From the NCBI GenBank assembly GCA_963785725.1, contig CAWAWS010000007.1:512001-576000 (forward strand): a stretch of 64,000 nucleotides of DNA, in the 5' to 3' direction. Shown here piece by piece: positions 1,701 through 25,421 of the stretch. Both the position numbers and the translations under genes were made by a program. The notes under the pieces were generated by a model. The model was not told where the DNA came from and did not search any database. It saw only the letters and a program-made list of their open reading frames with translations. Each line of letters starts with the position of its first letter. Within the stretch, counting starts at the first letter, position 1. Source of the stretch: an uncultured delta proteobacterium (lineage in GTDB: Bacteria > Myxococcota_A > Polyangia > Palsa-1104).

Positions 1701-3734
1701 GTGAGACGGCTGGCTGGCTTCGGCTGCGCGCTGGCGCTGCTGGCGGCGGCGCCGTCGCCTGCGGCCGCGGACGAGCAGACGTGGGTGCACGTCGGCGACG
1801 CCGCGCGAATGACGTGCGGCACGGCCCCGGCCGGCTGGCAGCGCGCGGACTTCGACGACCGCGCGTGGGTCGAGCGGCCAATCGTCTTCGAGCGGCATGA
1901 CAACGCGGCCGCGGCGGCTGCTGTTCCAGGCGAGACGGCCGATGCGCGCGCGCCGGCTGCGGCCACCGACGCGCCGACGAGCGCAGCCGCTCCGTCGCGT
2001 GCGACAAAGCCGGCGCCGCGGACGGCCGGAGCCGGCGCGCCCTCGACCGCTTCACCGAGCGCGCTCGGCGGCGCCACCTCGTCGTCTGGCACGCGCACCG
2101 CCTCCGCGACCGACGACCTCAACCGCACGTCGACCGCCGCCGATGCAGGCGTCGCCAGCTGTGTCGGCGCCCGCTTCGTCCGCTGGCACTTCACGGCCGA
2201 TGCGCGCGCGCTCGCCGCTCTGCGCGCCCTCACGCTGCGCGTTCGTTACACCCACGGCTTCGCCGCCTACCTCGACGGCACGGAGATCGCCCGCCGTCGC
2301 CTCGACGCCACGGCCGGCCCCGACGGTCTCGCCAGCGACGTCCACGGCCTCGAGTTCGAGAGCTTCGCCCTCGCCGCGCGCGGTCTGCTTCACGCGGGTG
2401 AAAACGTCCTCGCCATCGAGGTCCATCCGCACACCGCCGGACGCGCGACGTCGCTCGAGGCCTCGCTCGGCGGCGACGAAGGCCCGCGCCTGATCCGCGG
2501 CCCTTATCTGCTCGGTGTGCGCGAAAACGAAGCGACGATCGTCGTCGACACCGACCTGCCCACGACCGTCGCGCTCGGCTGGGGATCGCGCGCCGACTAC
2601 GGCTCGACCGCCACCGATCCGCTCGGCGTCCACCACGTCATCAAGCTGACGAAGCTCAAGCCCGGCGCCGTCTACCACTACCGCGTCCGCGCTCGAATGC
2701 TCGAAAATGCGCAATTGCACAACGAAAATGCGCAAACGCAAAATGCCAATGTGCAATTGCACAATGAAGATGCCCAAACCACAAATTATAATGTGCGTTC
2801 GCACAATGAAAATGCGCAAACGCCAAATTATAATGTGCGATCGCACAATGAAGAGGCGAAGTCAGATAGTGTGAAGGAGTCTTCGGCGGCGGTGGTCGAC
2901 AGCGGCGACGTGGCGTTTCACACGCCGCCGGAATCGGGACGGCCGCTGCGCTTTGCCGTCTACGGCGACGTTCGGTCGGGGCACGACATTCACGCCGAGC
3001 TCAACCGCTCCCTCATCGAAGAGCAGCCGGATTTTGCCATCCTGACCGGCGATCTCGTCGATCGCGGCACCGACGAAGGGGAGTGGGAGAGCTTCTTCGA
3101 AGTGGCCGCGCCGCTGCTGCGTCAGGTCTGTATCTTCCCGGCGATTGGGAACCACGAGTATGCCAAGCAGGGCCATGGGCTCGCGGCGTTCATGCAATTT
3201 TTTCGCTGGCCCATCGCCGGCGCCGACGAGCCGTCTTGGTACAGCTACGACATCGCGGGCGCGCATTTCGTGGCACTGGACAGCGATCAGTACAAGTCGC
3301 CGCGGCAGCTCGGCTGGTTCGAGCACGACCTGAAGGAAGCGCGTCGCCGCCGCGTCCGCGCCATCTTCGTCTACGCGCACGAAGGGCCGGCGTCGTCGGG
3401 GCTGCACGGCGACAACCCGATCTGCGTGCGCGACTACGTGCCCATCATGCAGCGCTATCGGGTGTCGATGTTCTTCGGCGGCCACGATCACGACTACGAG
3501 CGCGGCCGCACCGGCACACTCGACTACGTCGTCACCGGCGGCGGCGGCGCCGAGCTGCGCGCGGCCAGATGCGGCGTGCCGGGAAAGCGTCCTTGTCCCG
3601 CGCGCTGCGCCATCTTCGTCAACGACCACAACTACGTCATGGTCGAGCTGCTCCCGTCGCTGTTCCGCGTCTGCCCCAAGCGCGTCGATGGCACCCCGAT
3701 CGAAGCGTGCATCCAATACCCGCTGCATCAATAA
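1701..3734 (+). CDS. Secreted purple-acid-phosphatase-like metallophosphoesterase with FN3-like domain
   Basis: Signal peptide after GTG 1701; motifs GDVR, TGDLV, GNHE, AHEG, GHDHDYER; start inferred. Confidence 0.8.
   Translation: MRRLAGFGCALALLAAAPSPAAADEQTWVHVGDAARMTCGTAPAGWQRADFDDRAWVERPIVFERHDNAAAAAAVPGETADARAPAAATDAPTSAAAPSRATKPAPRTAGAGAPSTASPSALGGATSSSGTRTASATDDLNRTSTAADAGVASCVGARFVRWHFTADARALAALRALTLRVRYTHGFAAYLDGTEIARRRLDATAGPDGLASDVHGLEFESFALAARGLLHAGENVLAIEVHPHTAGRATSLEASLGGDEGPRLIRGPYLLGVRENEATIVVDTDLPTTVALGWGSRADYGSTATDPLGVHHVIKLTKLKPGAVYHYRVRARMLENAQLHNENAQTQNANVQLHNEDAQTTNYNVRSHNENAQTPNYNVRSHNEEAKSDSVKESSAAVVDSGDVAFHTPPESGRPLRFAVYGDVRSGHDIHAELNRSLIEEQPDFAILTGDLVDRGTDEGEWESFFEVAAPLLRQVCIFPAIGNHEYAKQGHGLAAFMQFFRWPIAGADEPSWYSYDIAGAHFVALDSDQYKSPRQLGWFEHDLKEARRRRVRAIFVYAHEGPASSGLHGDNPICVRDYVPIMQRYRVSMFFGGHDHDYERGRTGTLDYVVTGGGGAELRAARCGVPGKRPCPARCAIFVNDHNYVMVELLPSLFRVCPKRVDGTPIEACIQYPLHQ
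2707..2848. repeat. 7 x 21-bp array of 16-bp palindrome, in frame inside the phosphoesterase
   Basis: Units start 2707, 2728, 2749, 2770, 2791, 2812, 2833, e.g. ATGTGCAATTGCACAA, ATGTGCGATCGCACAA. Confidence 0.9.
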
Positions 3735-3858
3735 GCGCGCGCCTAATTGTGCGTTTGCGTCATACCGGCCGCGGTGTCGCTCGCGGGCTCGTCATGCCGT
3801 GTCGTACGACTCTGTCGAGGTGAGGTGCCGTGACGATACCGGGTGACGCTGACGCGCG

Positions 3859-4530
3859 CTACGTCGTGCGCTTGATCGGCCGAGGGGCGTTCTTGCCCGT
3901 GCGCAGCGCGATGAACGCCGCTTCGTCTTTGCACAGCAGGTAAGGATTCGACGTGCGCTCCCAGCCAATCGTCGAGGTCGGCGTCTGCCCGTAATCGTGG
4001 CCCGGCCAGACGCGCGTCTCTTCCGGCAGTGACGCCAGTCGCTGCAGGCTGCGCCACATCGTCGGCGCGTCGCCGCCGGGAAAATCGGTGCGCCCACAAC
4101 CGCCGATGAACAGCGTGTCGCCGGTGAAGACGTTGCCGTCGACGAGATACGACGTTCCGGAGACGGTGTGGCCCGGCGTCGCCAGCGCCTCGATGCGCAG
4201 CGCACCGACGGCGATCGTCTCGCCGCCGCGCAACGGGGTCACCTGCGCCGAGGGCGCCGCCCGCGCCAGCGCCTCGGCCTCGCCCACGCCGACGTAGACC
4301 TTGGCGCCCGTCGCGCGCACGATCTCCTCGACGCCGTCGACGTGATCGTGATGCGTGTGCGTGACGAGGACGATCTCGATTCGCCAACCGCGCTTCGCCG
4401 CCTCTTTCAGCAGCCGATCGACCTCGAACGCCGGATCGACGACGGCGCACACACGCGCCTCGCTGTCTGCAATTAGCTCATTGAAATTACTCATCAAGCC
4501 GACTTCGGTCTGGAATATTTCGAGCGCCAT
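3859..4530 (-). CDS. MBL-fold hydrolase (glyoxalase II/persulfide dioxygenase-like)
   Basis: THTHHDH, TPGHT, FTGDTLF, GCGRTDFPGG, WPGHDY; AGGAG RBS before ATG 4530. Confidence 0.85.
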   Translation of the reverse strand: MALEIFQTEVGLMSNFNELIADSEARVCAVVDPAFEVDRLLKEAAKRGWRIEIVLVTHTHHDHVDGVEEIVRATGAKVYVGVGEAEALARAAPSAQVTPLRGGETIAVGALRIEALATPGHTVSGTSYLVDGNVFTGDTLFIGGCGRTDFPGGDAPTMWRSLQRLASLPEETRVWPGHDYGQTPTSTIGWERTSNPYLLCKDEAAFIALRTGKNAPRPIKRTT

Positions 4531-4763
4531 CTTGACTCCTCTCGCCTCGCCCTCACAACAGTAGGGTCGGGAAACGCCGCTGCACCGTACCCCCTGCGGC
4601 GCCTTGGCGGTCCGACACATTGGCTGGCTCGATCGCGCTGTACCCCCCTGCGGCGCGATCGCAGCCGGCCGTTTTTATTCGCGCGCGACCGCGTTCTCCC
4701 GTCGCCGTATGAACGCGGCTCGCTCGGCCGCGTCATGACCCGAAAGCTGGCCACCGCGCGCCA

Positions 4764-4826
4764 TTGTGCAACTGCGTAATAAACAGTAATTATGCAGTTG
4801 CGTAATATCGTGGTGCATTTGCGCAA
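4764..4826. repeat. Three 16-bp palindrome copies upstream of metF
   Basis: 4764 TTGTGCAACTGCGTAA, 4790 TTATGCAGTTGCGTAA, 4811 TGGTGCATTTGCGCAA. Confidence 0.8.
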
Positions 4827-6568: not shown

Positions 6569-6642
6569 CGTCGCCCTCCGTGGCGCCGCTCGGACGCCTC
6601 TACTTGGACCCTGCGCCCGACCCCAACCGCTGTCAAGCTCGG

Positions 6643-6892
6643 TTGTGCGACTGCATAATAAAAATGTGCAACCGCGTTATAAATTCACAGCTGCAGCGAA
6701 ACAGAGGCCTCGACGTGGCTTCCGCTCAATCGCGAACGAGGTTTCGGGCGGTCAACGTGCAAAAGCAAAATATCGCGCAGAGCGTCATCGGCGATCGCGG
6801 CCGCGACTTGGTCGCGGGCGGACGACGCGGCGGCGGTCGCCCCGGCGTCGCAAATTGTGCGATCGCACCATGTTTGCGGTGCATTTGCACAA
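6643..6892. repeat. Two pairs of 16-bp palindromes upstream of phaR-like gene
   Basis: 6643 and 6664 (21 bp apart); 6855 and 6877 (22 bp apart). Confidence 0.8.
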
Positions 6893-6923
6893 TATGTTAG
6901 CCTGCGTTCGATCGGAGGCCGGC

Positions 6924-7535
6924 GTGAGCAGCAAGGCGAGAGCGGCGAAGGGCAATAAAGGCGGCAGCGTCAAGTCGGCCGGCGCGCGCGCCGGTAAGCC
7001 GACCGCGACGGCCGAGGTCAAACGCAAGCGAGGGCGGCCGCCGCGGGCGCAGGCGGAGGCGACGCAGCAGGCGTTTCCCGGCGAGCGCATGATCCATCGC
7101 TACGGCAATCGTCGCTTTTACGATCTGGCGCAGTCGCGCGCGGTCACGATGGAGCAGATCGGCGACCTCGTCCGCGACAAGCAGAACGTGCGCATCCTCG
7201 ACGTCGAGCGCGGCAACGCCGACATCACGCGCCGGGTGATGCTGCAGATCTTGATGGAGTCGGGCGCGCAGCTGGACGCCGTTCCCGTCGAGTTTCTGCG
7301 CAAGCTCATCGTGCCGTTCGAGAAGCACACGGCCGGCTGGGTGCACAATTACCTGACGAAGGGGCTCGATTCGTTGGAGCGCGCCGAGCGGCAGGGCAAG
7401 GTGCCGGACAGCGACGGGCCGATGGCGAAGGGCGTCGTGGAGTACGTGCCGCAGGCCGACTACCGGCAGCAAATGGCCAAGGCCGACATCACGCGCAAGA
7501 TCGACGAGCTGCGCCGCAAGCTCGACGATATCTAG
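6924..7535 (+). CDS. PhaR/AniA-family (PHB accumulation regulator DNA-binding domain) protein with basic N-terminal tail and AT-hook
   Basis: IHRYGNRRFYD...VTMEQI...DITRRVMLQILME and VPVEFLRKLI match PhaR; KRKRGRPPR AT-hook; GGAGG RBS before GTG 6924. Confidence 0.8.
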   Translation: MSSKARAAKGNKGGSVKSAGARAGKPTATAEVKRKRGRPPRAQAEATQQAFPGERMIHRYGNRRFYDLAQSRAVTMEQIGDLVRDKQNVRILDVERGNADITRRVMLQILMESGAQLDAVPVEFLRKLIVPFEKHTAGWVHNYLTKGLDSLERAERQGKVPDSDGPMAKGVVEYVPQADYRQQMAKADITRKIDELRRKLDDI

Positions 7536-7687
7536 CCCGCGGCGCCTGTTTCGCCGCGTCGACGGCGCGGGCTCGTGGGCGGCGCTCGACTTGGAGTGAC
7601 CTCGCGTCGAGGCGCGCTACTTCACGCGAACGTGACCTACGGCGCACGGACCTGCGATCGGCGCGACCGAGAATCGCCGCGCGGCTG

Positions 7688-9871
7688 CTACTTCACGCGA
7701 AACGTGACTTGCAGCGCGCCGACATTGTCTGCCGCGTCCACCGCGCGCACCGCCAGCGAATGCGTGCCCGCGACGAGCCCGCTCGGCAGCTTCACGCTGA
7801 ACTCCTCGTTCGGATCGTCGAGAATCCCGTCCTTGGGCGCGAACGGCTGCCAATCGCCGCCGTCGACCGAGTACGCCAGATCCGAGATCGTCGAGAAGCT
7901 GTCGCGCGCACGCCCGCTCGCCCACGGATACGCCACCTTCAGATCGAGCAGCTCGGGCTTGCGGTTGTCGACGAGGAACGGCGTCGACGCCAGGCTATGC
8001 TCGAGCGCCTCCTCGCGCGGATTGGAGCGCTCGTCGGACGCCACCACCTTGACGACATAATTTCCGTCGGGAATCGACTCGGTGTTCCACTCGTAATCGG
8101 TGCGCGTCAAAGGCTCGGATCCGCCGAGCGGCTTCCAATTGCTCTCGCTCTCCTCGCGGAAATAGAGCCGATAGATGAGATCGTCGTCGTCGGGATTCTC
8201 GACGCGCCAGCGCAGCTTGACGACCGGCGACCGCGGCTTGGTCGCGCGCACGAACGCCGACGGTCGCCGCGCCTGCGTCTCCTCGCCGACGGTGAGCTCG
8301 GTGATGCGCGGCGGCTGATTCTTCGGCTGATAATAGGTCGTCAAATCGCGCAGCACCGTATGTGTCGCCGCGAAATTGACTCGCACCTGCAGATAGCGGC
8401 CATCCGGCGACGCGATATGGCCGACACCGCCGTCGCCCGTCTTCTCCATACGCAGCGGCGCCGTCCAGCCGCTCCACGTCTTGTCGGGATGCGACGTGTT
8501 GCCGGCGCGCGTCTCCAGCGTCAGCTGCCCGTGCCCGCTCCAGCGCACGTTGCCCCAGCGCGCCGGAAACTGCGCGTCGTAGACCTTGGTGACGTAATGC
8601 GAATCCTTGGGCGGATCGGCGCTGACACGATAAAGCGCGCCCGCGTCACCGGTTCCGATCAGCCCGTTTGGTGCACTTGCACCATGGTTTTGTGCAAACG
8701 CATCAAGCGACATCGTCAACACTTGGCGCTCCGGCAGATCGAGCGCCGTAATCACCGTGCGATCGGGGCGAATGAGGTAGACGCGGCCGTTGGAGCCGCT
8801 CGCCGCCCACACGTTGCCGTCGCTGTCGGCGAACACGGCGGTGAAGTAGCCGTCGGCGAGCGCGTGCAGCTGCTCGACGCGGCCGTCGGGATCGAGCCGG
8901 TAGATGGCGCCGCGGCCGCGGCGATCGCGGGTCAGCGACGCCGTCGTCGCCGGCGCGGCCGGTGTCGCCGGCAGCACCATCTTCGTGCCGTGCGGCGCGT
9001 CCGGTCCCGTCGAGACGGCGGGCGCGGTCGTTCCGGTGCGCTGGAACTCGTTGACGGCGACGTAGGTGACGTTGCCGCGGCGGGAGATGGCGCGCACCTC
9101 GTCGCCGTCGAAGTCGTGCAGCGCTTGCACCGTCGCGCCGTTCGCGGTGGGGACGATGCGATACAAGATGGCCTGATCGGCCGAGCCGGCGAGCAGCGCG
9201 CCGTCGTCGGCGCGCGCGAGCGACAGGAGGTGCTTCTCGCCGGTCTCGTAGACGAGCCGATCGCGGCGCCCGAACGACGGCCGATCGAGGTGCGACGCGT
9301 CGATGGCGAAGAGGCGCCCCGCCGGCCCGGTGGCGGCGTACAGCGTCTGCTTGGCTTCGTCGTAGGTCATCGCCCACACGTGCTCGGCGTCGAGCTTGGC
9401 CAGCTCCCGCGCCTTGCCGTCGCGGTCGATGAGATAGACGCGCCCGCCCGGCATCGTGCCCGCGAAGACGCTGCCGTTGGGGCCGACCGCCAGCGACGAG
9501 ACGAGGATCGCGTCTAGCTTGCACAGCCGCCGCAGCTTGCCCTTCTGATAGACGTAGACGACGCCCTGATCGCCGGTGCCGACGAAGACGGTGCCGTCCG
9601 CGCTGCTCGCCGTCGTGTACACGACCGACTCGTTGACCTCGATGCGCGTGGCGCTGAAGCCGCTCGTGGCCTCGCCCAGCGACGAGAGCAAGACGCCGGT
9701 CGATTCGCCTTCGTCGAAGTCTTTATAGCTGGTGATGCGCCAGGCGCGCGTGCCGCCGGCGAACGCAGCCTTTGTGGTGCAAATGCATAATAATGTGATG
9801 CAAACGCACAATAAGGCCGTCAGCTTGCGGAGAGATATTTTGCGATCGCACAACGAAGGCGCGGGCGTCAC
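7688..9871 (-). CDS. Secreted beta-propeller protein with C-terminal FN3/Ig-like domains
   Basis: Repeated xVGTG/AATG..G.(L/V)Y blades, signal peptide; ATGA overlap with upstream S55 gene. Confidence 0.7.
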   Translation of the reverse strand: MTPAPSLCDRKISLRKLTALLCVCITLLCICTTKAAFAGGTRAWRITSYKDFDEGESTGVLLSSLGEATSGFSATRIEVNESVVYTTASSADGTVFVGTGDQGVVYVYQKGKLRRLCKLDAILVSSLAVGPNGSVFAGTMPGGRVYLIDRDGKARELAKLDAEHVWAMTYDEAKQTLYAATGPAGRLFAIDASHLDRPSFGRRDRLVYETGEKHLLSLARADDGALLAGSADQAILYRIVPTANGATVQALHDFDGDEVRAISRRGNVTYVAVNEFQRTGTTAPAVSTGPDAPHGTKMVLPATPAAPATTASLTRDRRGRGAIYRLDPDGRVEQLHALADGYFTAVFADSDGNVWAASGSNGRVYLIRPDRTVITALDLPERQVLTMSLDAFAQNHGASAPNGLIGTGDAGALYRVSADPPKDSHYVTKVYDAQFPARWGNVRWSGHGQLTLETRAGNTSHPDKTWSGWTAPLRMEKTGDGGVGHIASPDGRYLQVRVNFAATHTVLRDLTTYYQPKNQPPRITELTVGEETQARRPSAFVRATKPRSPVVKLRWRVENPDDDDLIYRLYFREESESNWKPLGGSEPLTRTDYEWNTESIPDGNYVVKVVASDERSNPREEALEHSLASTPFLVDNRKPELLDLKVAYPWASGRARDSFSTISDLAYSVDGGDWQPFAPKDGILDDPNEEFSVKLPSGLVAGTHSLAVRAVDAADNVGALQVTFRVK
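8669..8705. repeat. Pair of 16-bp palindromes (21-bp period) inside CDS
   Basis: TGGTGCACTTGCACCA and TTGTGCAAACGCATCA; encode DAFAQNHGASAP. Confidence 0.8.
9775..9853. repeat. Three 16-bp palindromes in signal-peptide coding region
   Basis: 9775, 9796 (+21), 9838 (+42). Confidence 0.8.
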
Positions 9872-11964
9872 TGGCTCTGGTCGTCCTTGACGTGAACGGT
9901 GATCTCTTGTTTGCCCTGCATGACGCCGCGCATGGGCACGACGAAGCGGGCGGCGCGCTTGAACGTGTCGGCGCGACGCGTGGAGGCGCCCGGCCGCAGC
10001 GTATCGATGACGGAGCCGGGCAGATCGGGGATGACGCTGCCGCGGAGGGTGACGCCTTCGTCGGGCGTCTCCAGGCCGACGACGATGGAGTCGGCGGGGT
10101 AGCCTTTGCGCAAGTTGTCGATGAGGCCGCCCAAGCTCTCGGGCGGCGCGACGTCGGGGTGCGCGAGGCTGCCGGCGGTGACGACGACCTTGACCGACTG
10201 CCCGGCGAGCGCGCGCGGCACTTCGAGCGGGATGGCGCGGACGTATTCCTGGCCGGCGTAGGGGCGCAAGGTGACGTAGAGGTTGGGGCGCGAGCCGGGC
10301 ACGAGGTCGTCGGAGTTGAGCGCCACGCCGACGATCTCCGAGACCTCCGCCTTGTAGTCGACGTCGACGTCGATGTCGATGCGGTCGAGGTTGGCGGGCG
10401 CGAACGGGTTGAAGAGGATGTCGCCGATCGCCTTCAAGCCCGACGCCGACGCCAGCGTGCGCGTCGAGACGCCGTCGGGCGAGTAGACGTGATCGATGAG
10501 CACGAGCGGTTTGTAGCCGCGCACGGCCAGGTTCGAGCGCACCGTGATGGTGGCGTCGGCGACGTCGCTGGCCGCGTTCTGCGCGGCGTTGGCGACGACG
10601 GTCGAGGCCAGCATCGGCGTCAGGAAGCGGTGGCGCACCACCTCGAAGTGGAAGTCCTGCTCGGCGCGACCGGGCCCGCCGACTTTGACGTGCACGGGGA
10701 TCATGTCGGCGCGCTGCGACGTGTCGCCGATGATGCCGGCCTGGCGATCTTGCACCAGCGAGCCGATCTCGTTCAGCGGCGACGCCATCTTGAACGACGA
10801 CGACAGCGCCGACATGAACGTGTGAATCTCGGCGGTGGCGATCGGCAGATAAATCTCGCCGACGTTGAACATCGGATGGCCGAAGGCGAGCACTTTGTCG
10901 CCTTCGACGGCGGTGACGGTGCCGGTGCCGGCGGCGCTGACGTCGCCGCGGATGAGCTGCACGGCGATGGATCCGCCGTTCTCGAACGCTTTCGGCCCGC
11001 TGCCGTCGCCGCTGCCGGAGCCGCCGGCCTGCAGCGGCACCATATGGAACGGCTCGAAGACGCGCGTCAGCTCGGCGAACGCGGCGGCGCCGACGCCGGC
11101 CAGCGACAGCGGCACCGACGCGCGCACCAGGCGCGGCTCGGCGCCTTCGGGCAGCGCCGGCAGCGGCAGGCGCGCCAACAGCGGCGAGCGATCGTTCACC
11201 GGATCGCGGCCGTCGCCGATGGCCTCCGCCAAGCTGCGCCGCGCCGACGCCGTAAATTGTGCATTCGCGTCATTACGTTGTGCGAATGCACCATCACGTT
11301 GTGCGATTGCATCATTATGTTGTGCGTTTGCACCAACTTCGCCACCGCGACGACGATATTGCGGATCATTGGCCGCTTCGGCGACGGGCGTGCTCGACCG
11401 GCCGCGCAGCGGGCGCTTCAGGTCCGCCATCATCGTCTCGATGGGCGTGACGCCGGCGATGGGATCCTTCGCGAAGTGCCAGCCATAGCTGAGCGCGCCG
11501 GCCAGGCGGCCTTCGAAGTAGATGGGCGAGCCCGACATGCCGGCGACGATGCCCGAGTGCAACAGGCGCGGATCGTCGGACTGCACGAGGATGATGTCCT
11601 GCTTGGGCAGGAAGTTGTGCAGCACGCTGATGACAGTGACGTCGAAGCGCTCGGGCTTCGTGCCTTTGAACACCGTCAGGCCGTAGCCTTTCATGCCGGC
11701 GCGGACTTCGGATAACGGCATGTAGTTGCCGTGGCGGACGGCGGCAGGCGTGACGATGGGCGCGTTGCCGCGCGCCGGCAGCGACCCGGGAGCGGCGGTC
11801 GTCGGCGACGTCGTGGGCGTGATGGTCATCGGAGCGCCGGTCGTCGCCGAAGCCGGGGCGACCGCGCTGCTCGTGTTCGGTGCGGCACCGGCGACGGAGG
11901 CGATCAGAGCCGCGGCTGCGACCGACGAGACAGGTAGCAGGCGAGCGGTCAGACGCAGGAACAT
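9868..11964 (-). CDS. SpoIVB-type peptidase S55 domain protein
   Basis: GMKGYGLTVFKG, GIVAGMSGSP, GTGTVT, AFGHPM; start inferred. Confidence 0.85.
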   Translation of the reverse strand: MFLRLTARLLPVSSVAAAALIASVAGAAPNTSSAVAPASATTGAPMTITPTTSPTTAAPGSLPARGNAPIVTPAAVRHGNYMPLSEVRAGMKGYGLTVFKGTKPERFDVTVISVLHNFLPKQDIILVQSDDPRLLHSGIVAGMSGSPIYFEGRLAGALSYGWHFAKDPIAGVTPIETMMADLKRPLRGRSSTPVAEAANDPQYRRRGGEVGANAQHNDAIAQRDGAFAQRNDANAQFTASARRSLAEAIGDGRDPVNDRSPLLARLPLPALPEGAEPRLVRASVPLSLAGVGAAAFAELTRVFEPFHMVPLQAGGSGSGDGSGPKAFENGGSIAVQLIRGDVSAAGTGTVTAVEGDKVLAFGHPMFNVGEIYLPIATAEIHTFMSALSSSFKMASPLNEIGSLVQDRQAGIIGDTSQRADMIPVHVKVGGPGRAEQDFHFEVVRHRFLTPMLASTVVANAAQNAASDVADATITVRSNLAVRGYKPLVLIDHVYSPDGVSTRTLASASGLKAIGDILFNPFAPANLDRIDIDVDVDYKAEVSEIVGVALNSDDLVPGSRPNLYVTLRPYAGQEYVRAIPLEVPRALAGQSVKVVVTAGSLAHPDVAPPESLGGLIDNLRKGYPADSIVVGLETPDEGVTLRGSVIPDLPGSVIDTLRPGASTRRADTFKRAARFVVPMRGVMQGKQEITVHVKDDQSQ
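11257..11335. repeat. 4 x 21-bp palindrome array in frame inside S55 peptidase
   Basis: 11257, 11278, 11299, 11320; encodes GANAQHNDAIAQRDGAFAQRNDANAQ. Confidence 0.9.
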
Positions 11965-12174: not shown

Positions 12175-12236
12175 TTGTGCATTTGCATAATAAATGATGC
12201 GAGCGCACAATTCACTGCTGATGTGCGTTCGCATCA
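12175..12236. repeat. Three intergenic 16-bp palindromes
   Basis: 12175 TTGTGCATTTGCATAA, 12195 TGATGCGAGCGCACAA, 12221 ATGTGCGTTCGCATCA. Confidence 0.8.
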
Positions 12237-12471
12237 CGAATCCGGTGGCTCGGTGGAGGTCGCCTCAGGCGCGGACGGTAGGCGGCCTGAGAAAAAGCGC
12301 GCGCGCGAGAATATTGGACAGTGGTTCCCGTTATTTGAGTGTGCGGTTGGACAACTGAGGGGTCGCGCCGACATCAGGAGAACGTGGGAATTCGGTCACT
12401 TGTGATGGCGTCGACACGGTAGGGCTCCGTAGCGATTGACGGCGCGCGCCGTGCGGGGATACCCTTCGCGC

Positions 12472-12912
12472 ATGAAGTCTTTGTGGTGCGCCGGCATCAT
12501 GTTTTGTTGTGCAGTTGCGTCATCAGGCTGTGGCGGAAGCTCGGCGACGTCGTCCACCAAGGACGTCATCGGCAGCTACATGGTCATGATCACGAACACC
12601 GACGTCAATCGCACCGACTCCGACGTCATGACGGTAGCGCCGGGCAGCGGCGGCGACATCTTGCTGACGTTCGTCGCCGGCATCACGACCGATATTTCCG
12701 GCCCGAACCCGGACGGGTTGCGCGGGACGATCAAAGCGACCGAAGTGACGGTGGCGTCGCAGCCGGCGCACGTCGATCACTCGACGGGCAACCTCGACGG
12801 GACGATCAGCGGAACGGGCACGTTCAAGACTGACGGCGTCGACCTGAAGATGATGTTCGAGCCGGCCGGCGGCACGGCGATGTCGTTCGAGATCACCGGC
12901 ACCCACCTGTAA
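12472..12912 (+). CDS. Putative lipoprotein
   Basis: Signal peptide ending SSG-C followed by GGSS linker and beta-rich domain. Confidence 0.7.
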   Translation: MKSLWCAGIMFCCAVASSGCGGSSATSSTKDVIGSYMVMITNTDVNRTDSDVMTVAPGSGGDILLTFVAGITTDISGPNPDGLRGTIKATEVTVASQPAHVDHSTGNLDGTISGTGTFKTDGVDLKMMFEPAGGTAMSFEITGTHL

Positions 12913-13269: not shown

Positions 13270-14064
13270 TTACGGCACGAGGACGGTGCCGACGCTGCCG
13301 GGCTCTCCGACGGCGCGCGCGACGTCGCGCGAGACGATGTAGATGGCGCGCGCGCCGGCTTCCAACGCCGCGAACGACTCCTCCAGCTTCGGGATCATTC
13401 CGCCCGACACCGTGCCGTCGGCGATGGCGCGCTTGCCGTCGGCGACGGTCAGCCGCGGGATGCGCGACGCCGGGTCCTGAATGTCGCGCAAGACGCCCGG
13501 CGCGCCGGTGACGAGCACGAGCGCGTCCGCCCGCAGCGCGCCGGCGAGCTGGTTGGCGACGATGTCGGCGTTGATGTTGTAGACCGCGCCGTCGCTGCCG
13601 TGGCCGAGGCAGGCCACGACCGGCACGTAGCCATCGTCGAGAACGCGCGCCAGCAGCGCCAGATCGAAGTCGTCGACATCGCCGACGTGACCGAAGTCGA
13701 TCGGATCGGGCCCGCAGCCGGAAACGACCCGTGGCGGCCTCTTGTGCGCTCGCACAATATCGTGGAGCCCCACCGGCTTCAGCCCCGCGGCACGCAGCTG
13801 CGTGCACAGGTCGACGTTCACCTGGCCGGCGATGACCATCTTCATGACGTCGAGCGTGGCGGCGTCGGTGATGCGGCGGCCGCCGACGATGCGCGACTCG
13901 ATGCCCAGCCTCTTCGACAGCGCCGTCGCTTGCGGGCCGCCGCCGTGGCTGACGACGACGCGGCGGCCGCCGTCGACGAGCGTGCGCAGGTCGCGCGCCA
14001 GCGGCGCCATCTCCGCGCCGCCGACGACCTCGCCGCCGAGTTTGACGACGATCGTTTCACTCAT
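13270..14064 (-). CDS. argB: Acetylglutamate kinase
   Basis: VVKLGG, SHGGGPQ, GRRITD, NINAD, GGMIPK. Confidence 0.92.
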   Translation of the reverse strand: MSETIVVKLGGEVVGGAEMAPLARDLRTLVDGGRRVVVSHGGGPQATALSKRLGIESRIVGGRRITDAATLDVMKMVIAGQVNVDLCTQLRAAGLKPVGLHDIVRAHKRPPRVVSGCGPDPIDFGHVGDVDDFDLALLARVLDDGYVPVVACLGHGSDGAVYNINADIVANQLAGALRADALVLVTGAPGVLRDIQDPASRIPRLTVADGKRAIADGTVSGGMIPKLEESFAALEAGARAIYIVSRDVARAVGEPGSVGTVLVP

Positions 14065-14087
14065 GGCTCATCCCATCGTGGAGGTCA

Positions 14088-14145
14088 TGGTGCAGTTGCA
14101 TAATTATATGGTGCAAATGCGTAATTGCATGATGCAAATGCACAA
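14088..14145. repeat. 3 x 21-bp palindrome array between argC and argB
   Basis: 14088, 14109, 14130; abuts the argC stop codon. Confidence 0.9.
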
Positions 14146-15210
14146 TTACGGCCACGAGCCGGGATCTTCGAGCGTCAGCTTCTCGTCGAGGCCGAGCATG
14201 ATGTTCATGCTCTGGATGGCCTGGCCGGCGCCGCCCTTGATGAGGTTGTCGAGGACCGAGAAACAGCTGACGAGCCGCTTGCCAGTGACCGGATCGGGCG
14301 TGTCGGAGACGGCGAAGCCGACCTCCACGAAGTTCGAGCCGGAGACGGCGGCGACCTCGGGCAGCCGCTTTTTCGGCACGCGCACGAACGGCTCGCCGCG
14401 GTAGGTCTCGGCGAACGCCGAGGCGATGGCGTCCTTGGTCGCCTTGCCGTCGACGTGGGCGAAGCAGGTGGCGAAGATGCCGCGCGGCAGCGGCGCCGAG
14501 ATCGGCACGAAGCGCAGGAGCAGGTTGCGCGCGCCCGCCGACGCCAGCGTCTCGGTGATCTCGGGGATGTGCTGGTGCTCGAGCGGCTTGTAGGTGCGCA
14601 GGTTGACCGCGCGCGTCGGATGGTGCGTCGTCGCCGTCGGCACGACGCCCGCGCCCGACGAGCCGGTGATGCCGACGACTTCGACGCCGCCTTCGAGCAG
14701 CCCGGCCTTGGCCAGCGGCAAGAGGCCGAGCTCGATGGTCGTCGCGAAACAGCCGGGCGAAGCGACGTATTTTGCCGTCTTGATGCGCTCGCGGTTGAGC
14801 TCGGGCAGTCCGTAGACGAAGGTGCCGTCGAGGAGGTGCGCCGACGGATGCGCCTGCCCGTAATATTTCTGGTAGGCGGCGGCGTCGCGCAGGCGGAAAT
14901 CGCCCGACAGATCGACGATGCGCGCGCCCGTCTTCATGATGTCGGGGACTTTGTGCGCGCTCACTTTGTGGGGCAGCCCGAGGAGCACGATATCCATCCC
15001 GCGCGCGGCCTCTTCGGGCGGCAGCTCTTCGAACTTCAGCTCGCTCAGCCCTTCGAGGTTGGGATGCGCGTCGGCGAGCGGCTCACCGACGAAGTCGACG
15101 GACGCGACGCGCTCGAGGCTCACTTGCGGGTGCAAGAGGAGGCGGCGGATCAGCTCGTTGCCGCCGTAGCCGGATCCGCCGATGATGGCGGCCTTGAATC
15201 GCTTGGTCAT
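14146..15210 (-). CDS. argC: N-acetyl-gamma-glutamyl-phosphate reductase
   Basis: GGSGYGG, DLSGDFR, YGLPEL, SPGCF, HQHIPEI, DNLIKGGAGQA. Confidence 0.95.
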   Translation of the reverse strand: MTKRFKAAIIGGSGYGGNELIRRLLLHPQVSLERVASVDFVGEPLADAHPNLEGLSELKFEELPPEEAARGMDIVLLGLPHKVSAHKVPDIMKTGARIVDLSGDFRLRDAAAYQKYYGQAHPSAHLLDGTFVYGLPELNRERIKTAKYVASPGCFATTIELGLLPLAKAGLLEGGVEVVGITGSSGAGVVPTATTHHPTRAVNLRTYKPLEHQHIPEITETLASAGARNLLLRFVPISAPLPRGIFATCFAHVDGKATKDAIASAFAETYRGEPFVRVPKKRLPEVAAVSGSNFVEVGFAVSDTPDPVTGKRLVSCFSVLDNLIKGGAGQAIQSMNIMLGLDEKLTLEDPGSWP

Positions 15211-15263
15211 GCGGAAGATCTAGCGGGATCGGCTCGCGATGTCCATCGACCGGCCGGATTCTA

Positions 15264-15352
15264 TGGTGCAAATGCATCATGACGCGGGCGCGGCTCCGTG
15301 GCGTCGCTGGAGATATTGTGCATATGCGCATTATTGTTGTGCATATGCATCA
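15264..15352. repeat. Three intergenic 16-bp palindromes upstream of argC
   Basis: 15264, 15316, 15337 (+21). Confidence 0.8.
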
Positions 15353-17942: not shown

Positions 17943-18168
17943 TGGTGCATCTGCACAATCGAATGTGCGGCTCTAAAATCGCACCTGCAGAATTGGTCTT
18001 GGCAGCGGTATCGAATCTATTGTTTCGACGAGTCCGTTCGACCAGACGCGTCTTGCCGAACGGACTCGCTACTTCACGAGCGCCACTGCGCCTTCATCGG
18101 GCTCCGAGCTCGAATCGCTCCGGCAGCGAGTGACCTGCCGGGGCGCCGCGTCGTGCCGGGACGGCCTT

Positions 18169-19210
18169 TCAGGCGTGCGCCACAGCGCCGTGCTTCTCCG
18201 TCCCGGCTTTCCCGGCCTCGCTAGCCGCCCGATACCACGCCACCACATCCCGCGCGGTCTCGTCGAACGGCCGGAACCGAACGTCGAGCTCGCGCTCCGC
18301 CCGCGCCGAGGTTGCGCGGGCGGGGTTGTTCATCGACTTCAGCGCCATCCGAGTCATCAACGCCGGCCGGCCGGAGATGCGTGACCATGCTTCGCTCGCG
18401 CAGGCGAACGCGAATGCGAGGGAATACGGTAGGTCGCATCCGCGGCCCGGGGATCCCGCTCACTCGTTCGAGCGCCGACAGCATCTCGGCGATCGACATC
18501 GTCGGCCCCGCGATCAGAAAACGCGCGCCGTGCTTCGCGCGTTCGGCGGCGCGAATCATTCCCTTCGCGACGTCGCGCGCGTCGACCACGTTCGCCCCGC
18601 CCGGCGGGATCGCGGGCACTTTGCGGGCGAGAAAGTCCTGCGCGAGCTGCCCCGAGCCGGTCGGAGCCGCGTCGCCCGGGCCCCACATCCAGCCGGGAAG
18701 AATCTCGATGATCGCCATCCCTCTCTTCGGCGCGAACGCATGGATTTGCGCGTCGCCGTCCACCTTGCTCCGGAAGTACAGATTCTCTCGCGCGATCGGA
18801 GGGGCCTGCGTGTCCTCGTCCCCGGGCGAGCCGTCGGGCTTCGAGCCGATCGTTCCACTCGAGCTCGTGTGCACGAACGTGCGAACGCCCACATCATCCG
18901 CGAGCGCCATGAGCGCCAGAGTGCCGCGGACGTTCACCGCCGCGAGCGCCTCGGCGTGGTCGCCCGGCTGGTAATACTCGCGGAAGTACGCCGCGGTGTG
19001 GAACACCGCGTCGCACCCGCCGAGAGCCGGCGCGAAGGCTTCCGGGCTCCGCATGTCTCCGACGAGCCACGTAGCCCCCGTACCGTCGAGCAGGCGGCGC
19101 GCCTTGGCGTCCGACCGCACGAGCCCGACGACCTCGTGTCCCTCGGCCCGAAGCGCGCGCACGAGATTATTTCCGAGCAGCCCGGTCGCTCCAGTCACGA
19201 ATGCTTTCAT
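18169..19210 (-). CDS. NAD-dependent epimerase/dehydratase (dihydroflavonol reductase-like), frameshift near 18430
   Basis: TGATGLLG, FHTAA, YFRSK, DARDVA; C-terminus SARAERELDVRFRP in another frame. Confidence 0.8.
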
Positions 19211-19269
19211 ACGGGTTAATATGTGACGGATCCTTCGGGTTTCCATTCGCATTCCAAGCGAGAGGACCT

Positions 19270-19932
19270 ATGCATTCGTTTCAGCCGAGAAAGAAGCCGA
19301 TCCAGGAGCGCTCGAAGGCCACGGTCGAGGCCATTCTGGAGGGGACGATTCGGGTCTTGCTCGACGAGGGGTTCGAGACGCTGACCACGACGCGCGTGGC
19401 GAAGGTCGCCGGAGTGGGCGTCGGGACGCTCTACCAGTACTTCCCGGCGAAGGAGTCGCTCCTGTTCGCCCTCCTCGAGCGCGAAATGACGACGCTCGAG
19501 ACGGAGCTGCTCGGGACGCTCGTGGCGACGGAGAGCCAATCGCTCGAAGCGCGCATTACCGCGACGATCGACGCTCTCGTGCGCCACAAGAAGGCGCACG
19601 CCGAGCTCAGCGTGGTGCTGCAGGCCCACATGCCGCGCTTCAATGGGATCCGGGTCGTCCGCGCGACAGTGCGCCGGATCGTCTCCGCCTTCGCCGTCGT
19701 GATCCGTCCGAGCTTGGCAGCGCGGATGGACGACGCAGAAGTGCAGCTCGTCGCGATGATGATCGCAACCGCAGTCCAGGGGGCGATCGACGGCGCCCTC
19801 AATCTCTCCGCGGCGACCCTCCGGCGCCCAGCGTTTCGGGACGCGCTCGTTCACCTCGTCCTCGGCTATCTCCGCGAGTCGGGGGCGAAGCTTCCGCCCC
19901 GGCTCCGCACGCGCGTCCGTCTCCGGTCGTGA
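19270..19932 (+). CDS. TetR-family regulator divergent from epimerase
   Basis: PRKKPIQERS, TTTRVAKVAGVGVGTLYQYFPAKE. Confidence 0.9.
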   Translation: MHSFQPRKKPIQERSKATVEAILEGTIRVLLDEGFETLTTTRVAKVAGVGVGTLYQYFPAKESLLFALLEREMTTLETELLGTLVATESQSLEARITATIDALVRHKKAHAELSVVLQAHMPRFNGIRVVRATVRRIVSAFAVVIRPSLAARMDDAEVQLVAMMIATAVQGAIDGALNLSAATLRRPAFRDALVHLVLGYLRESGAKLPPRLRTRVRLRS

Positions 19933-20248
19933 AAGCGACCGACCGACGTGACCATGCCCGTCCTTGAACGTTGTAGCCGTCGACAAGACGCGTAAGTTGG
20001 GTTTCCGGCCAAGGTCGGTGGAACTCCGGCGCTGACGCTCGGCAAGACGCGCGTCGTCGAACGGATTCGTTTCGACGGCTTGGAAGGGCAGAGCAAACAG
20101 CGACTGCGGGCATGACGCATCGGATCAATGTCACTCTGACCCACTTTGCGTCCGATGGACCGCTGGCGACGATGACGATCGATAACGGTGAACCAAGGCT
20201 CAGTCGATATCGTTACGACGCCTGGATTTACCTACGTACTGCGCTCGC

Positions 20249-20701
20249 TCAGATGAAGCGGCTGAGCCAGAGATCGACCGCCTCTTTCGGCATTGCGCCC
20301 ACTTGCTGGTCGACCTCGAGCGGACCGCGAAACAGCTTCAACGCCGGTATCGACTGAATTCGATATCGTCCCGCGATCTTCTGGTTCTCGTCGACGTTTA
20401 CTTTGACGATCTTGAGCTTGCCGCCCCGTTCGCGCGCCACCGCTTCCAACACCGGCCCCACCGCGCGACACGGTCCGCACCACGGCGCCCAAAAATCGAC
20501 GAGCACCGGAATCGGCGACTGCTCGACGACATCGCGCCAAGTCGCGTCGGTGCCGACGACGGGAGCGCGCGGAAAAACCTTCTGTTTACAGCGGCCACAC
20601 GTCGGATCGTCGAGCCGCCGCACAAATGGAAAGCGATTGAGTGACCCGCATTGAGCACACGCAACCTGCACTTTGTCTTCGTTGTTAGTCGCTGTTTCCA
20701 C
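20249..20701 (-). CDS. trxC: Thioredoxin 2 with N-terminal zinc finger
   Basis: CAQC and CGRC, then VDFWAPWCGPC; start inferred. Confidence 0.85.
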   Translation of the reverse strand: METATNNEDKVQVACAQCGSLNRFPFVRRLDDPTCGRCKQKVFPRAPVVGTDATWRDVVEQSPIPVLVDFWAPWCGPCRAVGPVLEAVARERGGKLKIVKVNVDENQKIAGRYRIQSIPALKLFRGPLEVDQQVGAMPKEAVDLWLSRFI

Positions 20702-20777
20702 GGCGCTAAAATAAGTCTTCACGCGCGCTTCGCAAGAGCCCGTTGCCGACGCCAGGGCGCGGGCGTATTGTTGAATC

Positions 20778-21407
20778 ATGCCGTACCGTGGCGAGACCGA
20801 GCCGCGGATCGCTTGTACCGCGCACAATTCGGCGGAGGCGGCGTCGAGCTGCACTCGCTGTCATGTGGCTCTCTGCGATCCTTGCACGCTGTACTTCTCG
20901 GCGGATCCTTACTGTCGCCGCTGTGTGGCCGGAGCACGGCGCGCATGGGTGGCACGAATCGCCGGTGGCGTCACAGCCGTCTTATTGACGCTGGCCATCG
21001 GCTCGGGCGTGATGCTGGCGGCGATTCCGTCGCATTCGCGCATCGCGGCAAATCCGGTGACGCTCGTGAGCCGGCCGTATCCCGAGAATTGCGCGCCCGC
21101 CGATCGTTGGCTCGCGGCCGCTAAGCGTGATGTGACCTTCAGTCGCTATCACACGGCGCTGAATCATTTGTCGTTGTCGCAGCGCGATTGCGAGCCTAGC
21201 CCGCAGCGCGATGAGTTGTACGCGCTCGCTTACGATGGCGCGGGCGATCGGCTGTCGGCGATCGCGGCCGCGTCGCGATGGGTCGATTCCAGCCACGGCG
21301 GTCGCGACGCGTGTACGCTGTTCGCGACGCTGCTGGAGGTCAACGCCGGCGGCGCGAACGCCGGGCAGGACGCGCGCTGCTTGGACGCGCTCAGCGTCCA
21401 ACCGTAA
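20778..21407 (+). CDS. Hypothetical: B-box-like Cys/His domain, TM helix, TPR-like region
   Basis: CTAH..CTRC..LCDPC..YCRRC then hydrophobic helix. Confidence 0.6.
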   Translation: MPYRGETEPRIACTAHNSAEAASSCTRCHVALCDPCTLYFSADPYCRRCVAGARRAWVARIAGGVTAVLLTLAIGSGVMLAAIPSHSRIAANPVTLVSRPYPENCAPADRWLAAAKRDVTFSRYHTALNHLSLSQRDCEPSPQRDELYALAYDGAGDRLSAIAAASRWVDSSHGGRDACTLFATLLEVNAGGANAGQDARCLDALSVQP

Positions 21408-21706
21408 GCGCGCCGCGGCGTTCGCGCGCAGTAGTTCCTTAAGGGCTTCAATCACCCGCAATCACCTTCATTGAATGGCGCAGTGTTTAGCGGTCTCGAT
21501 GCGCGCGGCCGCAAATCCGCTACGCCATTCGTCGCCATATCCTCAACAGATAATCGGCGACAGACTTAAGGTCTGGCGAATTTATGCGGCTTATTGCCAC
21601 GAGCGCGCCGCGACGTCGGGCCCGACACGACCGTCGCGCCTGCTCGGCGCGTCGCCGCGAACGGCACGAGCCGAGGCGCGCCTGCTTCGTTGCGGCCTGA
21701 CGATGG

Positions 21707-22642
21707 CTACGCGACGAAGGCCGCGTCCGAGGCCGACTGCGGAATTGCCAGCGCTTCGTCGTAGCCCGGCGTGACCACTCGCGCCGACGGCGCGTGCAGG
21801 CGCGCCTCGGCGACGAATCCGTCGAGATCGATCCCCGGCAAGAGGTGCACACCGCCCTCGAGCGGCGCGAAGAACGCGTCATGATGCGTTGGCACAATTA
21901 ACTGCGGGCGCAGCGCGCCGCACAGTCGCGCCAAGTAGTCGCGCGTCGCGCGCCGGCCGGCCAGACCGACGAGCAGCACGTCGGCGCGGGCGCCCGCGAG
22001 CGCGGCATCGATGAGGTCCGCGGAGCCGTTGTGATAGAGGCGCAGGCCGTTCGCTTCGACGAGGATGCCATAGGCGCCGCCCATGCGATAGCGCCACGCC
22101 GGCGCCGGCAGCGACGGCGGCGTGGTCACCTCGCCCGGAAACGGCACGCGATGCAGCACGACGCGACCGTGAAGGCTGGGCACGAAGCGCACGGTCGCCG
22201 CGCCAATCGCGAGGCTGCCGCCGTCGCCGCCGATCTCCCGCAGCTGCATCGCCGGCACGCCGGCGGCGCGCGCGAAGGCGCAGCTGCTGCGGCTGCCGAC
22301 GAAGAGCGCGCCCGTGGCCAGCGCGATCGCCGGCGCGTCGAGCAGGTGATCGAAGTGGCTGTGGCCGCACAGCACGGCGTCGACGCGAGGCGGCAGGTGC
22401 GCGCGAATCGCCGTCGCGTCCGGCTGCAGCGGCCGCAGCAGCTGCATCGCCGACGGCCGCGTCAGAAACGGGTCGATGAGCAGCGTCGTGCCGCCCACCT
22501 CGATGACATGGCCGGCCGTCCCCAACCAGCGCACGCGCATCGCCTCGTCGCCGCTGGCGCGCGTCGTCGGACGAAGCTCCGCGCGCGGCTTCCAACGCGG
22601 GAAGAGCCGGCGATAAAGCCAGCCGTTATGGTGCGATCGCAT
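21707..22642 (-). CDS. MBL-fold metallo-hydrolase (UlaG/UPF0173-like)
   Basis: WLGTAG, LIDPF, GHSHFDH, IVPTHHD. Confidence 0.85.
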   Translation of the reverse strand: MRSHHNGWLYRRLFPRWKPRAELRPTTRASGDEAMRVRWLGTAGHVIEVGGTTLLIDPFLTRPSAMQLLRPLQPDATAIRAHLPPRVDAVLCGHSHFDHLLDAPAIALATGALFVGSRSSCAFARAAGVPAMQLREIGGDGGSLAIGAATVRFVPSLHGRVVLHRVPFPGEVTTPPSLPAPAWRYRMGGAYGILVEANGLRLYHNGSADLIDAALAGARADVLLVGLAGRRATRDYLARLCGALRPQLIVPTHHDAFFAPLEGGVHLLPGIDLDGFVAEARLHAPSARVVTPGYDEALAIPQSASDAAFVA

Positions 22643-22723
22643 TAGACGCCCATGCTAACGCAACCGAACCCGAGCATCGCCACCTCCTGACGCAGACGCA
22701 CGACGCGCTCGTGAAGAGCGTCA

Positions 22724-22781
22724 TTTTGCAATTGCACCACGTATTTGTGCGTTTGCATAATGGTGTGGTGCGAATGCACAA
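22724..22781. repeat. 3 x 21-bp intergenic palindrome array
   Basis: 22724, 22745, 22766; another copy at 22629 spans the MBL gene start. Confidence 0.9.
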
Positions 22782-22836
22782 TAAGATTGGGGAAGCTGGC
22801 GGCCCGCCTAACGGTGGCACCGCGAGATCGAACGCG

Positions 22837-23499: not shown

Positions 23500-23731
23500 G
23501 AGGGCCCCATTGGGTCGATTCGTTACGTGGATGGTTTACTTGGGGACAGCGGCGAACGGCTTTTACCGACGACCTCGGCGGTCGCCAAACCGTAGACCAC
23601 CTCGGTGTAGCCGTCGGCGAGCTCGACTGCGCGGGCGGCGCCGTTGGCCGAAAGCTCGATGCGCGGCATGGCGCACGAATCATGGGCACGCCGGCCGCGG
23701 AATTACAAGCTCCGGGACGGTAACTTCGTCG

Positions 23732-23768
23732 TAGTGCAACTGCACAATGACGTGATGCGTTTGCATCA
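23732..23768. repeat. Pair of 16-bp palindromes (21-bp period)
   Basis: TAGTGCAACTGCACAA and TGATGCGTTTGCATCA. Confidence 0.8.
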
Positions 23769-24042
23769 TTTTCGCGCGCAAACGCGAGCCGCTCAGCGCG
23801 TGCGCGGCCGGCTCGCGCGCGCCGCCGGTGGCACGACGCCGATTCGGTGTGCGACGCCGGCTCGTCTCACTGCAATTCGTGGCCGAGGCAAGCTCGCCGA
23901 GACATACAGCATTCGCGAATCAATGTTGATCAACCCGTCGAACGAAGCTGCGCTGGCCGGATGGAGGATCATCGGCATTTGCGTGCGTGCAGTGAACGCG
24001 AGTCGATGCGCGGTGATTCGTCGTGCCTGACGTCGGGCGCGG

Positions 24043-25242: not shown

Positions 25243-25421
25243 ATGAACCTCCCGCCATAGAATATCATCACCGAGAAGATTGCGGCGCTCCGCCCTGTCG
25301 AGCGCGAATGGCGAGCTGTGCGGCTGAGTCAAAGGTCGCGGCGTCGGCGAAAATGTGCGCGCGCCCGGACTCGCAACGGCCGGGCTTACTTGCATTGCCA
25401 ATCGACGTTACAGTCACGTCA

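Follow-up and report, generated by a model that had tools for sequence, protein, structure and literature searches.

Why does a regulator gene of the PhaR family lie amid dozens of copies of one palindrome, in a genome in which no PHA synthase was found? We analysed a window, the whole stretch of 64,000 nucleotides, on contig C7 of an uncultured delta proteobacterium (G000; 8.9 Mb, 88% complete); positions without a contig name are those of the window. The regulator gene is located at 6924..7535 on the + strand (203 aa, GTG start) and is an orphan of a PHA cluster. A regulator paired with its operator is a known kind of switch, and the unusual part here is the spread of the sites.

The strict pattern T[TG][AG]TGC-N4-GCA[CT][AC]A has 60 copies in the 8.9-Mb genome, as against 6 with an N3 spacer and 1 with an N5 spacer; the TGC-N4-GCA pattern is therefore not a product of chance. 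Forty-two of the 60 copies fall in C7 453-540 kb. A matrix trained on this field detected 53 sites at 2707-27497 and 18 more in a second field 30-58 kb upstream of the window, and 56 of the 64 top-scoring sites belong to these two fields inside 86 kb. Around the regulator gene there are 51 matrix sites in 26 kb, compared with 0.1 per 26 kb elsewhere, a density contrast that is circular for this genome owing to the training of the matrix, but not for its relatives.

The first-pass annotation had assigned the encoded protein a PhaR-type DNA-binding domain, and a profile search agreed: PF07879 matched residues 56-113 (7089..7262, + strand; model pLDDT about 90) with an E-value of 7e-17 and 61.7 bits against a cut-off of 25. 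TIGR01848 matched residues 55-154 with 69.8 bits, under its cut-off of 109.45, and covered model positions 1-100 of 107. On sequence grounds, we regard the regulator as working like a PhaR but as falling outside the TIGR01848 equivalog; its operator is shifted and its PHA partner is missing. The Lys/Ala-rich tail and AT-hook reported earlier were also recovered: KRKRGRPPR (7020..7046, + strand; residues 33-41) follows a Lys/Ala/Gly-rich tail, and its G37-R38-P39 is invariant in 17/17 aligned sequences. The GRP hook occurs in 11/11 orthologues but also in 6/20 other PhaR homologues that are free of the motif, and the AT-hook is thus not special to this regulator-motif system. At the S-R-Y-V-T position, the 11/11 orthologues have Ala or Cys, here Ala73, and 20/20 other PhaRs have Tyr; this change is a possible cause of the operator centre being one base longer.

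Residues 102-151 (7227..7376, + strand) form a predicted homodimer interface that overlaps the PHB-accumulation segment of PhaR; the segment gave no separate Pfam match, and its region was aligned inside the TIGR01848 match. The homodimer model scored 0.72 (best of 3 controls, 0.00), with a contact agreement of at least 61% and a pLDDT of at least 72; the mark for this score was attained by 20/30 solved pairs and 1/23 single chains. The model thus supports the prediction that the regulator dimerises. A C-terminal helix (7464..7529, + strand; residues 181-202) with a conserved I-x-E-L-R-R-x-L pattern is a possible contact for higher-order oligomers. The regulator gave no match under E 0.02 to PDB sequences, a search in which no solved PhaR DNA-binding domain was found, and its model gave none at E 0.001 in Foldseek. 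Structural kin proposed by VIA-align (best Z 5.9 for the C-terminal helices and 5.0 for the N-terminal domain against a MutS mismatch domain) were rejected as not meaningful.

The gene's own predicted promoter carries a pair of putative operators. Four palindromes had been noted upstream of the regulator; four TGC-N4-GCA cores do lie in 6570-6930 (6646, 6758, 6858 and 6880), but just three are strong (24.7, 28.7 and 21.9 bits), the fourth scoring a weak 5.9 bits. The pair at 6855..6892 consists of 16-mers at 6855 and 6877, 22 bp apart, which flank the -35 of a predicted promoter at 6874..6918 on the + strand (-35 TTGCGG, 6874-6879; extended -10 TAGCCT, 6898-6903; RBS GGAGG, 6914-6918). This promoter was deduced from conservation in an alignment of 8 promoters and was not reported by a sigma-70 scan. 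In 6/8 of the aligned promoters, a pair of sites 22-23 bp apart flanks a conserved TTGCG-18-TAGCCT element; in the other 2/8, from orphan relatives, the proximal site is lost and a replacement site lies upstream, in phase. Relatives also show sites at the start of the phasin-like gene. At the upstream scar of a lost operon (6643..6679) there is a strong site at 6643, followed after 21 bp by a weak partner; G003 and G004 share it. The regulator likely represses its own promoter.

The motif of Rhodobacter sphaeroides PhaR has the form CTGC-N3-4-GCAG, which the first-pass annotation had given as the PhaR operator of alphaproteobacteria. Comparisons with published systems refer to the available excerpts of the papers cited, and in the PhaR literature searched, as far as its text was available, this form was not found; the best-documented core is TGC-N3-GCA, one base shorter. 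The half-site of the palindrome here fits that core, but the enriched spacer is N4. In Bradyrhizobium diazoefficiens, the footprinted PhaR sites are TGCGACGCACAA and TGCGTCGCACAA, with the consensus TGCRNYGCASMA, and they flank the -35 of phaP1 (PMC6201568); these sites share the YGCACAA half-site with the palindrome here. Phasin promoters of Sinorhizobium meliloti have two copies of the PhaR motif around -35, with AT-rich arms, and EPS genes are PhaR targets in that species (PMC12542648). In both B. diazoefficiens and P. denitrificans, PhaR occurs mostly as a tetramer (PMC10888616). The present regulator thus resembles rhizobial PhaR/AniA, as far as these three papers could be consulted, in PF07879 and the segment following it, the YGCACAA-type half-site, AT-rich arms, two sites flanking -35, ancestral linkage to phaC and a phasin-like gene, and candidate EPS targets. 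It differs in the 4-bp centre (3 bp in the rhizobia), the N-terminal AT-hook motif, the Tyr-to-Ala/Cys change, the TIGR01848 score under the cut-off, the failure to find a PHA synthase, and about 50 sites in 25 kb, many inside unrelated genes.

Orthologues of the regulator were present in 11/61 genomes searched (at least 77 bits). Co-location of gene and motif across genomes, a check proposed with the first reading, was found: a matrix match of at least 11 bits lay within 1.5 kb of the gene at 11/11 orthologue loci, this genome included and G006 with a weak match (11.7), and at 0/20 other PhaR loci. Ten orthologue loci had 100 matches in 141 kb, and 70 other PhaR loci had 12 in 985 kb. Among metagenome loci, sites were found at 13/14, the miss being a distant homologue at 33% identity. 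The 12 matches at other PhaR loci include a pair immediately upstream of the gene of one PhaR homologue outside the clade (L077:9776-9873). Because the orthologue loci are kin, the co-occurrence counts are not independent. Support independent of kinship comes from the half-site, which equals the footprinted sites of B. diazoefficiens, and from the layout of the pair around -35, as in S. meliloti. Co-location, half-site identity and the conserved pair around the predicted -35 together uphold the earlier proposal, and the PhaR-family regulator is very probably the cognate binder of the palindrome. The predicted dimer likely binds WT[TG][GA]TGC-RNNY-GCA[CT][AC]AW.

We consider it very unlikely that another DNA-binding protein reads the palindrome and that PhaR is a neighbour or one of its targets. 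Such a protein would suit the N4 spacer, as opposed to the published N3, and the sharing of gene and motif among kin, where co-occurrence is not independent. It would also suit G002 and G007, which are motif-rich and in which no orthologue was seen; however, both are about half complete and the expected place of the gene is beyond a contig end. Further, the regulator is the sole annotated DNA-binding gene of the conserved cluster, and the sites accompany it in differing gene neighbourhoods and stayed with it through two independent losses of the cluster (G000 lineage and G013). A TetR gene in the window (19270-19932) has no site within 1.3 kb. The genome holds two PF07879 genes, and the second PhaR paralogue (C7 384 kb) was rejected as binder: it has no site within 1.5 kb and occurs in motif-free genomes.

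Two class III-like phaC genes, whose G-x-C-x-G-G boxes are intact, enclose the antiparallel regulator gene in G001, G003, G004, G006, G008, G010, G017 and G021, where it is also behind a weakly phasin-like gene. As far as the contigs reach, the upstream side continues with genes for FadD, a FabG/PhaB-like reductase, a lipoprotein, a hydrolase, a TIGR04551 barrel and a second lipoprotein, in this order; in G012, only the upstream phaC is seen. Both PhaC proteins of G004 have an intact G-x-C-x-G-G box, Asp and His, and matched TIGR01836 with E-values of 6e-74 and 8e-80, below the cut-off. In the PHA cluster at L053:8706-12339, with its two class III-like phaC genes, the place of PhaE holds only a 71-aa ORF, for which there was no family match.

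In the present genome, the flanks are syntenic with those of the relatives and all ten PHA-cluster genes are gone. By synteny and tblastn, the lost phaC2-fadD-fabG-lipoprotein-hydrolase-barrel-lipoprotein operon (about 8.4 kb in G004) had its place at 6569..6854, and the lost phasin-like, 71-aa ORF and phaC1 genes had theirs at 7536..7687, a junction covered by a contig of run X1 that spans 7184-7738. The window had been said to contain no pha genes, and tblastn with the relatives' cluster proteins indeed matched only the regulator there (5701-7800). A search of the whole genome (88% complete) for phaC, likewise suggested, found no synthase: PF07167 gave 0 matches and TIGR01836 gave 0 at 1e-15. 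The best tblastn candidate (C2 256-257 kb, 24-26%) was rejected as a membrane-anchored alpha/beta hydrolase. A phasin orthologue was not found by tblastn, there was one sub-threshold PF05597 match, and PF03007 (wax-ester/fat synthase, for an alternative granule) gave 0 matches, as it did in control genomes. A PHA synthase is present in 7/14 other genomes of the family and in G017/G021. As synteny shows, the regulator was evidently left behind after deletion of the PHA cluster on both its sides.

The same orphan layout was seen on both sides of the gene in the near-identical metagenome loci L177/L178 and on the downstream side in L171. The orphan regulators form one clade (100/99) with long branches. 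Their DNA-binding domains are 60-66% identical to each other, compared with 75-90% for neighbouring genes; among PHA-positive genus-level relatives, the domains are 78-97% identical. Loss of the cluster is therefore old, and the regulator and its promoter sites have outlived it, an example of a PhaR kept long after PHA loss. In G013, the cluster was lost in a separate event, and 11 pattern matches remain.

The field extends on both sides of the regulator. At its lower-numbered end, four sites with a 42-bp period (2707..2848) lie in an in-frame insertion in a phosphoesterase linker that is absent from the G004, G010 and G012 orthologues. Sites at 3747..4826 follow, one in a convergent gap (3747) and three upstream of metF (4764, 4790 and 4811). 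Beyond the regulator, a beta-propeller gene has two sites in a loop insertion (8669..8705), found only in this genus and L178, and three over its N-terminal leader (9775..9853). Four sites with a 21-bp period (11257..11335) occupy an in-frame insertion in an S55 peptidase gene, absent from 7/7 aligned relatives, and five intergenic or leader sites lie at 12175..12522. A single site inside argB (13742..13757) was made by codon changes; arrays of three sites each lie at the argC-argB junction and upstream of argC (14088..15352). Fourteen further sites, singles and arrays of 2-4, occur at 17943..25962, and the distal edge is a seven-site array of near-identical duplicated units (27296..27497). 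The genome has 31 site clusters in total, 3 in convergent gaps and several mid-gene. Gene starts come from codon-based calling and are approximate, so that some leader sites are classed as intergenic. Sites overlap start codons or leaders at 9775-9853 and 14088-14145 and at many gene starts of relatives, where they yield N-termini such as MMQLHN and hydrophobic LCICTT stretches.

Adjacent sites 20-50 bp apart at the loci of ten genomes keep to a few distances: 126 of 131 spacings were 20-23, 31-34 or 41-44 bp (39% expected), which correspond to 2, 3 or 4 helical turns. Many of these are not multiples of 3, and a codon-frame origin of the 21-bp period was ruled out, since spacings of 22, 23, 31, 32 and 34 bp are common.

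Comparison with relatives indicates how the field arose. The phosphoesterase-metF-orf-propeller-S55-argB-argC block is conserved in the family, and it holds 32 sites in this window (2707-15352). The relatives in a five-genome comparison place the PHA cluster outside the block, and there it has no sites in G005, G008 and G013, 1 weak site in G012, and 3 in G010, all upstream of argC. This comparison shows that sites have, to judge from the aligned blocks, spread into flanking genes only where the PHA cluster adjoins them. The locus thus offers a dated natural experiment on the spread of binding sites, with housekeeping genes free of sites unless the regulator's cluster landed beside them. The argB site is one such case. 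It reads GAT ATT GTG C.. GCG CAC AA. in G000, G003 and G004, with rare codons (ATT 12%, CGA 3%), and encodes DIVRAHK or DIVHAHK, compared with DVVRAVR, DVVEAAR, DAVRAVR, GVVTAVR and GAIRATK in outgroups (n=5); it was built by substitutions that include amino-acid changes, and G002 has a partial form. In the propeller loop, a site-coding insertion was gained in this genus, and the in-frame S55 and phosphoesterase arrays occur only in G000. Site clusters with orthologous DNA are common to G004 (19/29), G003 (14/27) and G002 (8/12); the 10/29 absent from G004 are mostly larger arrays. In a related soil strain (run X1, single contigs), three arrays differ in copy number.

Sites also occur away from the block. 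G012 has 15 in a purine-catabolism cluster beyond argC, so that part of the field may be a real regulon cluster. This xanthine dehydrogenase/amidohydrolase cluster is site-rich in relatives (L038 and L035 of G004; L152 and L154 of G012) and largely missing from G000, where sites remain (17000-27500). Conserved satellite sites are found in an exopolysaccharide-type cluster (asparagine synthase, glycosyltransferases) in G000, G002 and G012 and inside or near mfd in G000, G003, G004 and G012; those upstream of a FabH-like gene, an MFS transporter and an efflux operon were seen in relatives only. In G017/G021, sites are dispersed over many contigs. The second TGC field of this genome (C7 453-482 kb; L131, L132) has its 18 sites among mfd and genes for BagA/BagB-like ATPases, a biotin carrier, a SurA-like protein and a type III/flagellar ATPase; the mfd sites are conserved in G003, G004 and G012, and the larger arrays are G000-only.

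What might the field do? Tetrameric repressors use auxiliary operators, as at lac O2/O3 and lambda OL-OR. We give an even chance to the reading that the orphan PhaR represses itself and that the approximately 50 phased copies are auxiliary operators which hold oligomeric repressor near the locus; taking PhaR as the binder, the auxiliary function of the field becomes slightly the better bet. Dimers would bind one palindrome and tetramers pairs of palindromes 2, 3 or 4 helical turns apart. The field would grow locally, through point changes and tandem duplication of 21-, 42- or 62-bp units, because a new site near a bound cluster would be occupied cooperatively and thus kept by selection. It would buffer free repressor and tighten repression, ancestrally as part of a PHA-titration switch; the present role may be autoregulation plus a small residual regulon, with exopolysaccharide genes as candidates. 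As with lac and lambda, extra phased sites lie near a regulated promoter, some in coding sequence; unlike in those systems, with their two or three sites, there are dozens over tens of kilobases.

Several observations sit awkwardly with auxiliary operators. Clusters in convergent gaps and mid-gene are not needed for promoter repression, and the field outlived the PHA genes and seems to have grown since, although no ligand is known that a titration switch could then respond to. The published consensus has a central spacer of 3 bp and the palindrome here one of 4 bp, the fast evolution of the orphan proteins could mean relaxed function, and the purine-catabolism sites of G012 may mark a real regulon cluster rather than spread. 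Further, G006, G008 and G010 keep the PHA cluster with 5, 5 and 16 pattern matches, and the field is therefore not needed for PhaR control. The first-pass annotation had named the gene without the motif cluster as a refuting case, and such a case occurs: G006, G008 and G013 carry the gene with 5-11 pattern matches genome-wide, so that the protein does not by its nature bring a wide field with it.

That the field persisted and gained arrays once PHA synthesis was lost would suit an alternative that we consider unlikely, in which PhaR has turned into a site-specific chromosome organiser and the field is a loop anchor or compact domain with secondary transcriptional effects. Tetramers would form bridges inside the field and across 30 kb to the second one (C7 453-482 kb). 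The sites in convergent gaps, linkers, loops and leaders, and the confinement of most top-scoring sites to two fields, are consistent with such an anchor, as are the separate adjoining fields of a second motif, which do not overlap within 5 kb. Precedents, within the available excerpts, come from Rok, whose sites form clusters in Bacillus subtilis (PMC11841835), and from GalR, with long-range contacts and sites at genes that it does not regulate (PMC5110547); both likewise involve a repressor, dense or non-regulatory sites and proposed DNA bridging. Here, the protein is unrelated, the palindrome is long, and the field is anchored on the regulator's own locus. However, the field tracks the insertion point of the PHA cluster rather than a fixed chromosomal landmark, and the sites are scattered across many contigs in G017/G021. 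Nor is it near oriC: dnaA and parS are on another contig here, and in G002 dnaA is at 650 kb on another contig.

It is less probable still that the field is a by-product of local duplication or conversion of operator DNA, with the promoter pair alone functional and the extra copies tolerated. The arrays are plain tandem duplications, the soil strain differs in copy number at three of them (single contigs), a GntR-type box is also most amplified here (121 versus 11-31 in genus-mates), and other tandem palindrome arrays exist in the genome. Against this, the argB site needed several point changes, amino-acid changes among them, and its rare codons are kept in three genomes; clusters are common to G004 (19/29), G003 (14/27) and G002 (8/12); and spacings of 22-23 and 31-34 bp retain the helical phase.

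With no PHA synthase found and the cluster deleted on both sides of the gene, the tethering of PHA granules to the nucleoid, raised by the first-pass annotation, is unlikely in this genome; its two other suggestions, a titration sink and an architectural protein, may still hold. We judge it highly improbable that the field is a granule centromere at which PhaR, bound to DNA and PHA, ties storage granules to one chromosomal locus for partition. PhaR binds both DNA and granules, the field is centred on synthase genes in PHA-positive genus-mates, and PhaM of Cupriavidus necator and PhaF of Pseudomonas putida tie granules to the nucleoid (PMC7204398, PMC9049629). From the excerpts available, those granule-related proteins share a Lys/Ala-rich DNA-binding tail with the regulator, but their DNA binding is not sequence-specific and they are not homologous to PhaR. 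Neither PhaC (PF07167, TIGR01836, tblastn) nor a phasin orthologue was found here; in published models PHA pulls PhaR off DNA, and the GntR-type fields need no granule. Such a role may still hold for G001, G003 and G004. A parS-type centromere or origin was rejected: parS-like matches lie on C19, C16 and C3, with one 2-mismatch match at C7 189 kb, dnaA is on C19, and motif and protein are unrelated. A convincing dif was not found, and the skew was too weak to place the terminus.

A second motif also forms fields in this genome. In an unbiased palindrome scan, TGGTT-N-AACCA, a GntR/FadR-type box, ranked first, with 129/137 copies in four fields (C7 358-389 kb, C7 421-435 kb, C33 40-70 kb and C39 300-320 kb), two of which sit shortly upstream on C7 and one of which contains a GntR-like gene. 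Thirty of 40 close spacings were 21 bp, and no TGC site lay within 5 kb of any box. The box is amplified in the same genera (121 in this genome, and 21, 31, 18, 11, 5, 5 and 31), compared with at most 3 copies in the other 53 genomes. Because this GntR-type box has comparable fields here, operator fields are a trait of the lineage and not specific to PhaR. That PhaR and the GntR-type regulator build non-overlapping bridged domains, splitting the chromosome into territories defined by transcription factors, is a doubtful extension of the anchoring alternative.

Such fields allow a test of whether selection in bacteria favours dense local operator fields, and whether for buffering, cooperative repression or chromosome folding. 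From the same locus comes a PhaR subfamily whose operator spacing is shifted and which a single residue marks, a useful addition given that the search of PDB sequences yielded no solved PhaR DNA-binding domain. In the literature searched, with most subscription journals beyond reach, we found no description of PhaR in Myxococcota or of such operator fields.

Other arrays were noted in the genome. The second PhaR paralogue (L001:1138-1749; C7 384.2-384.7 kb), which is class-wide and without a TGC-N4-GCA site, lies in a GntR-box field here and in G003, G004 and G012. GTGATA...TATCAC forms tandem arrays at C33:208300-208445 (6 copies at 26 bp) and at C39:656272-664140 (5 copies at about 90 bp and 2 beside a TetR-like gene), which may represent further operator amplification. 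Other apparent palindrome clusters (C3, C17 and C15) proved to be protein repeats. Eight CAAC-N3-GTTG palindromes in 20 kb (C26 151-172 kb) form a possible third small field.
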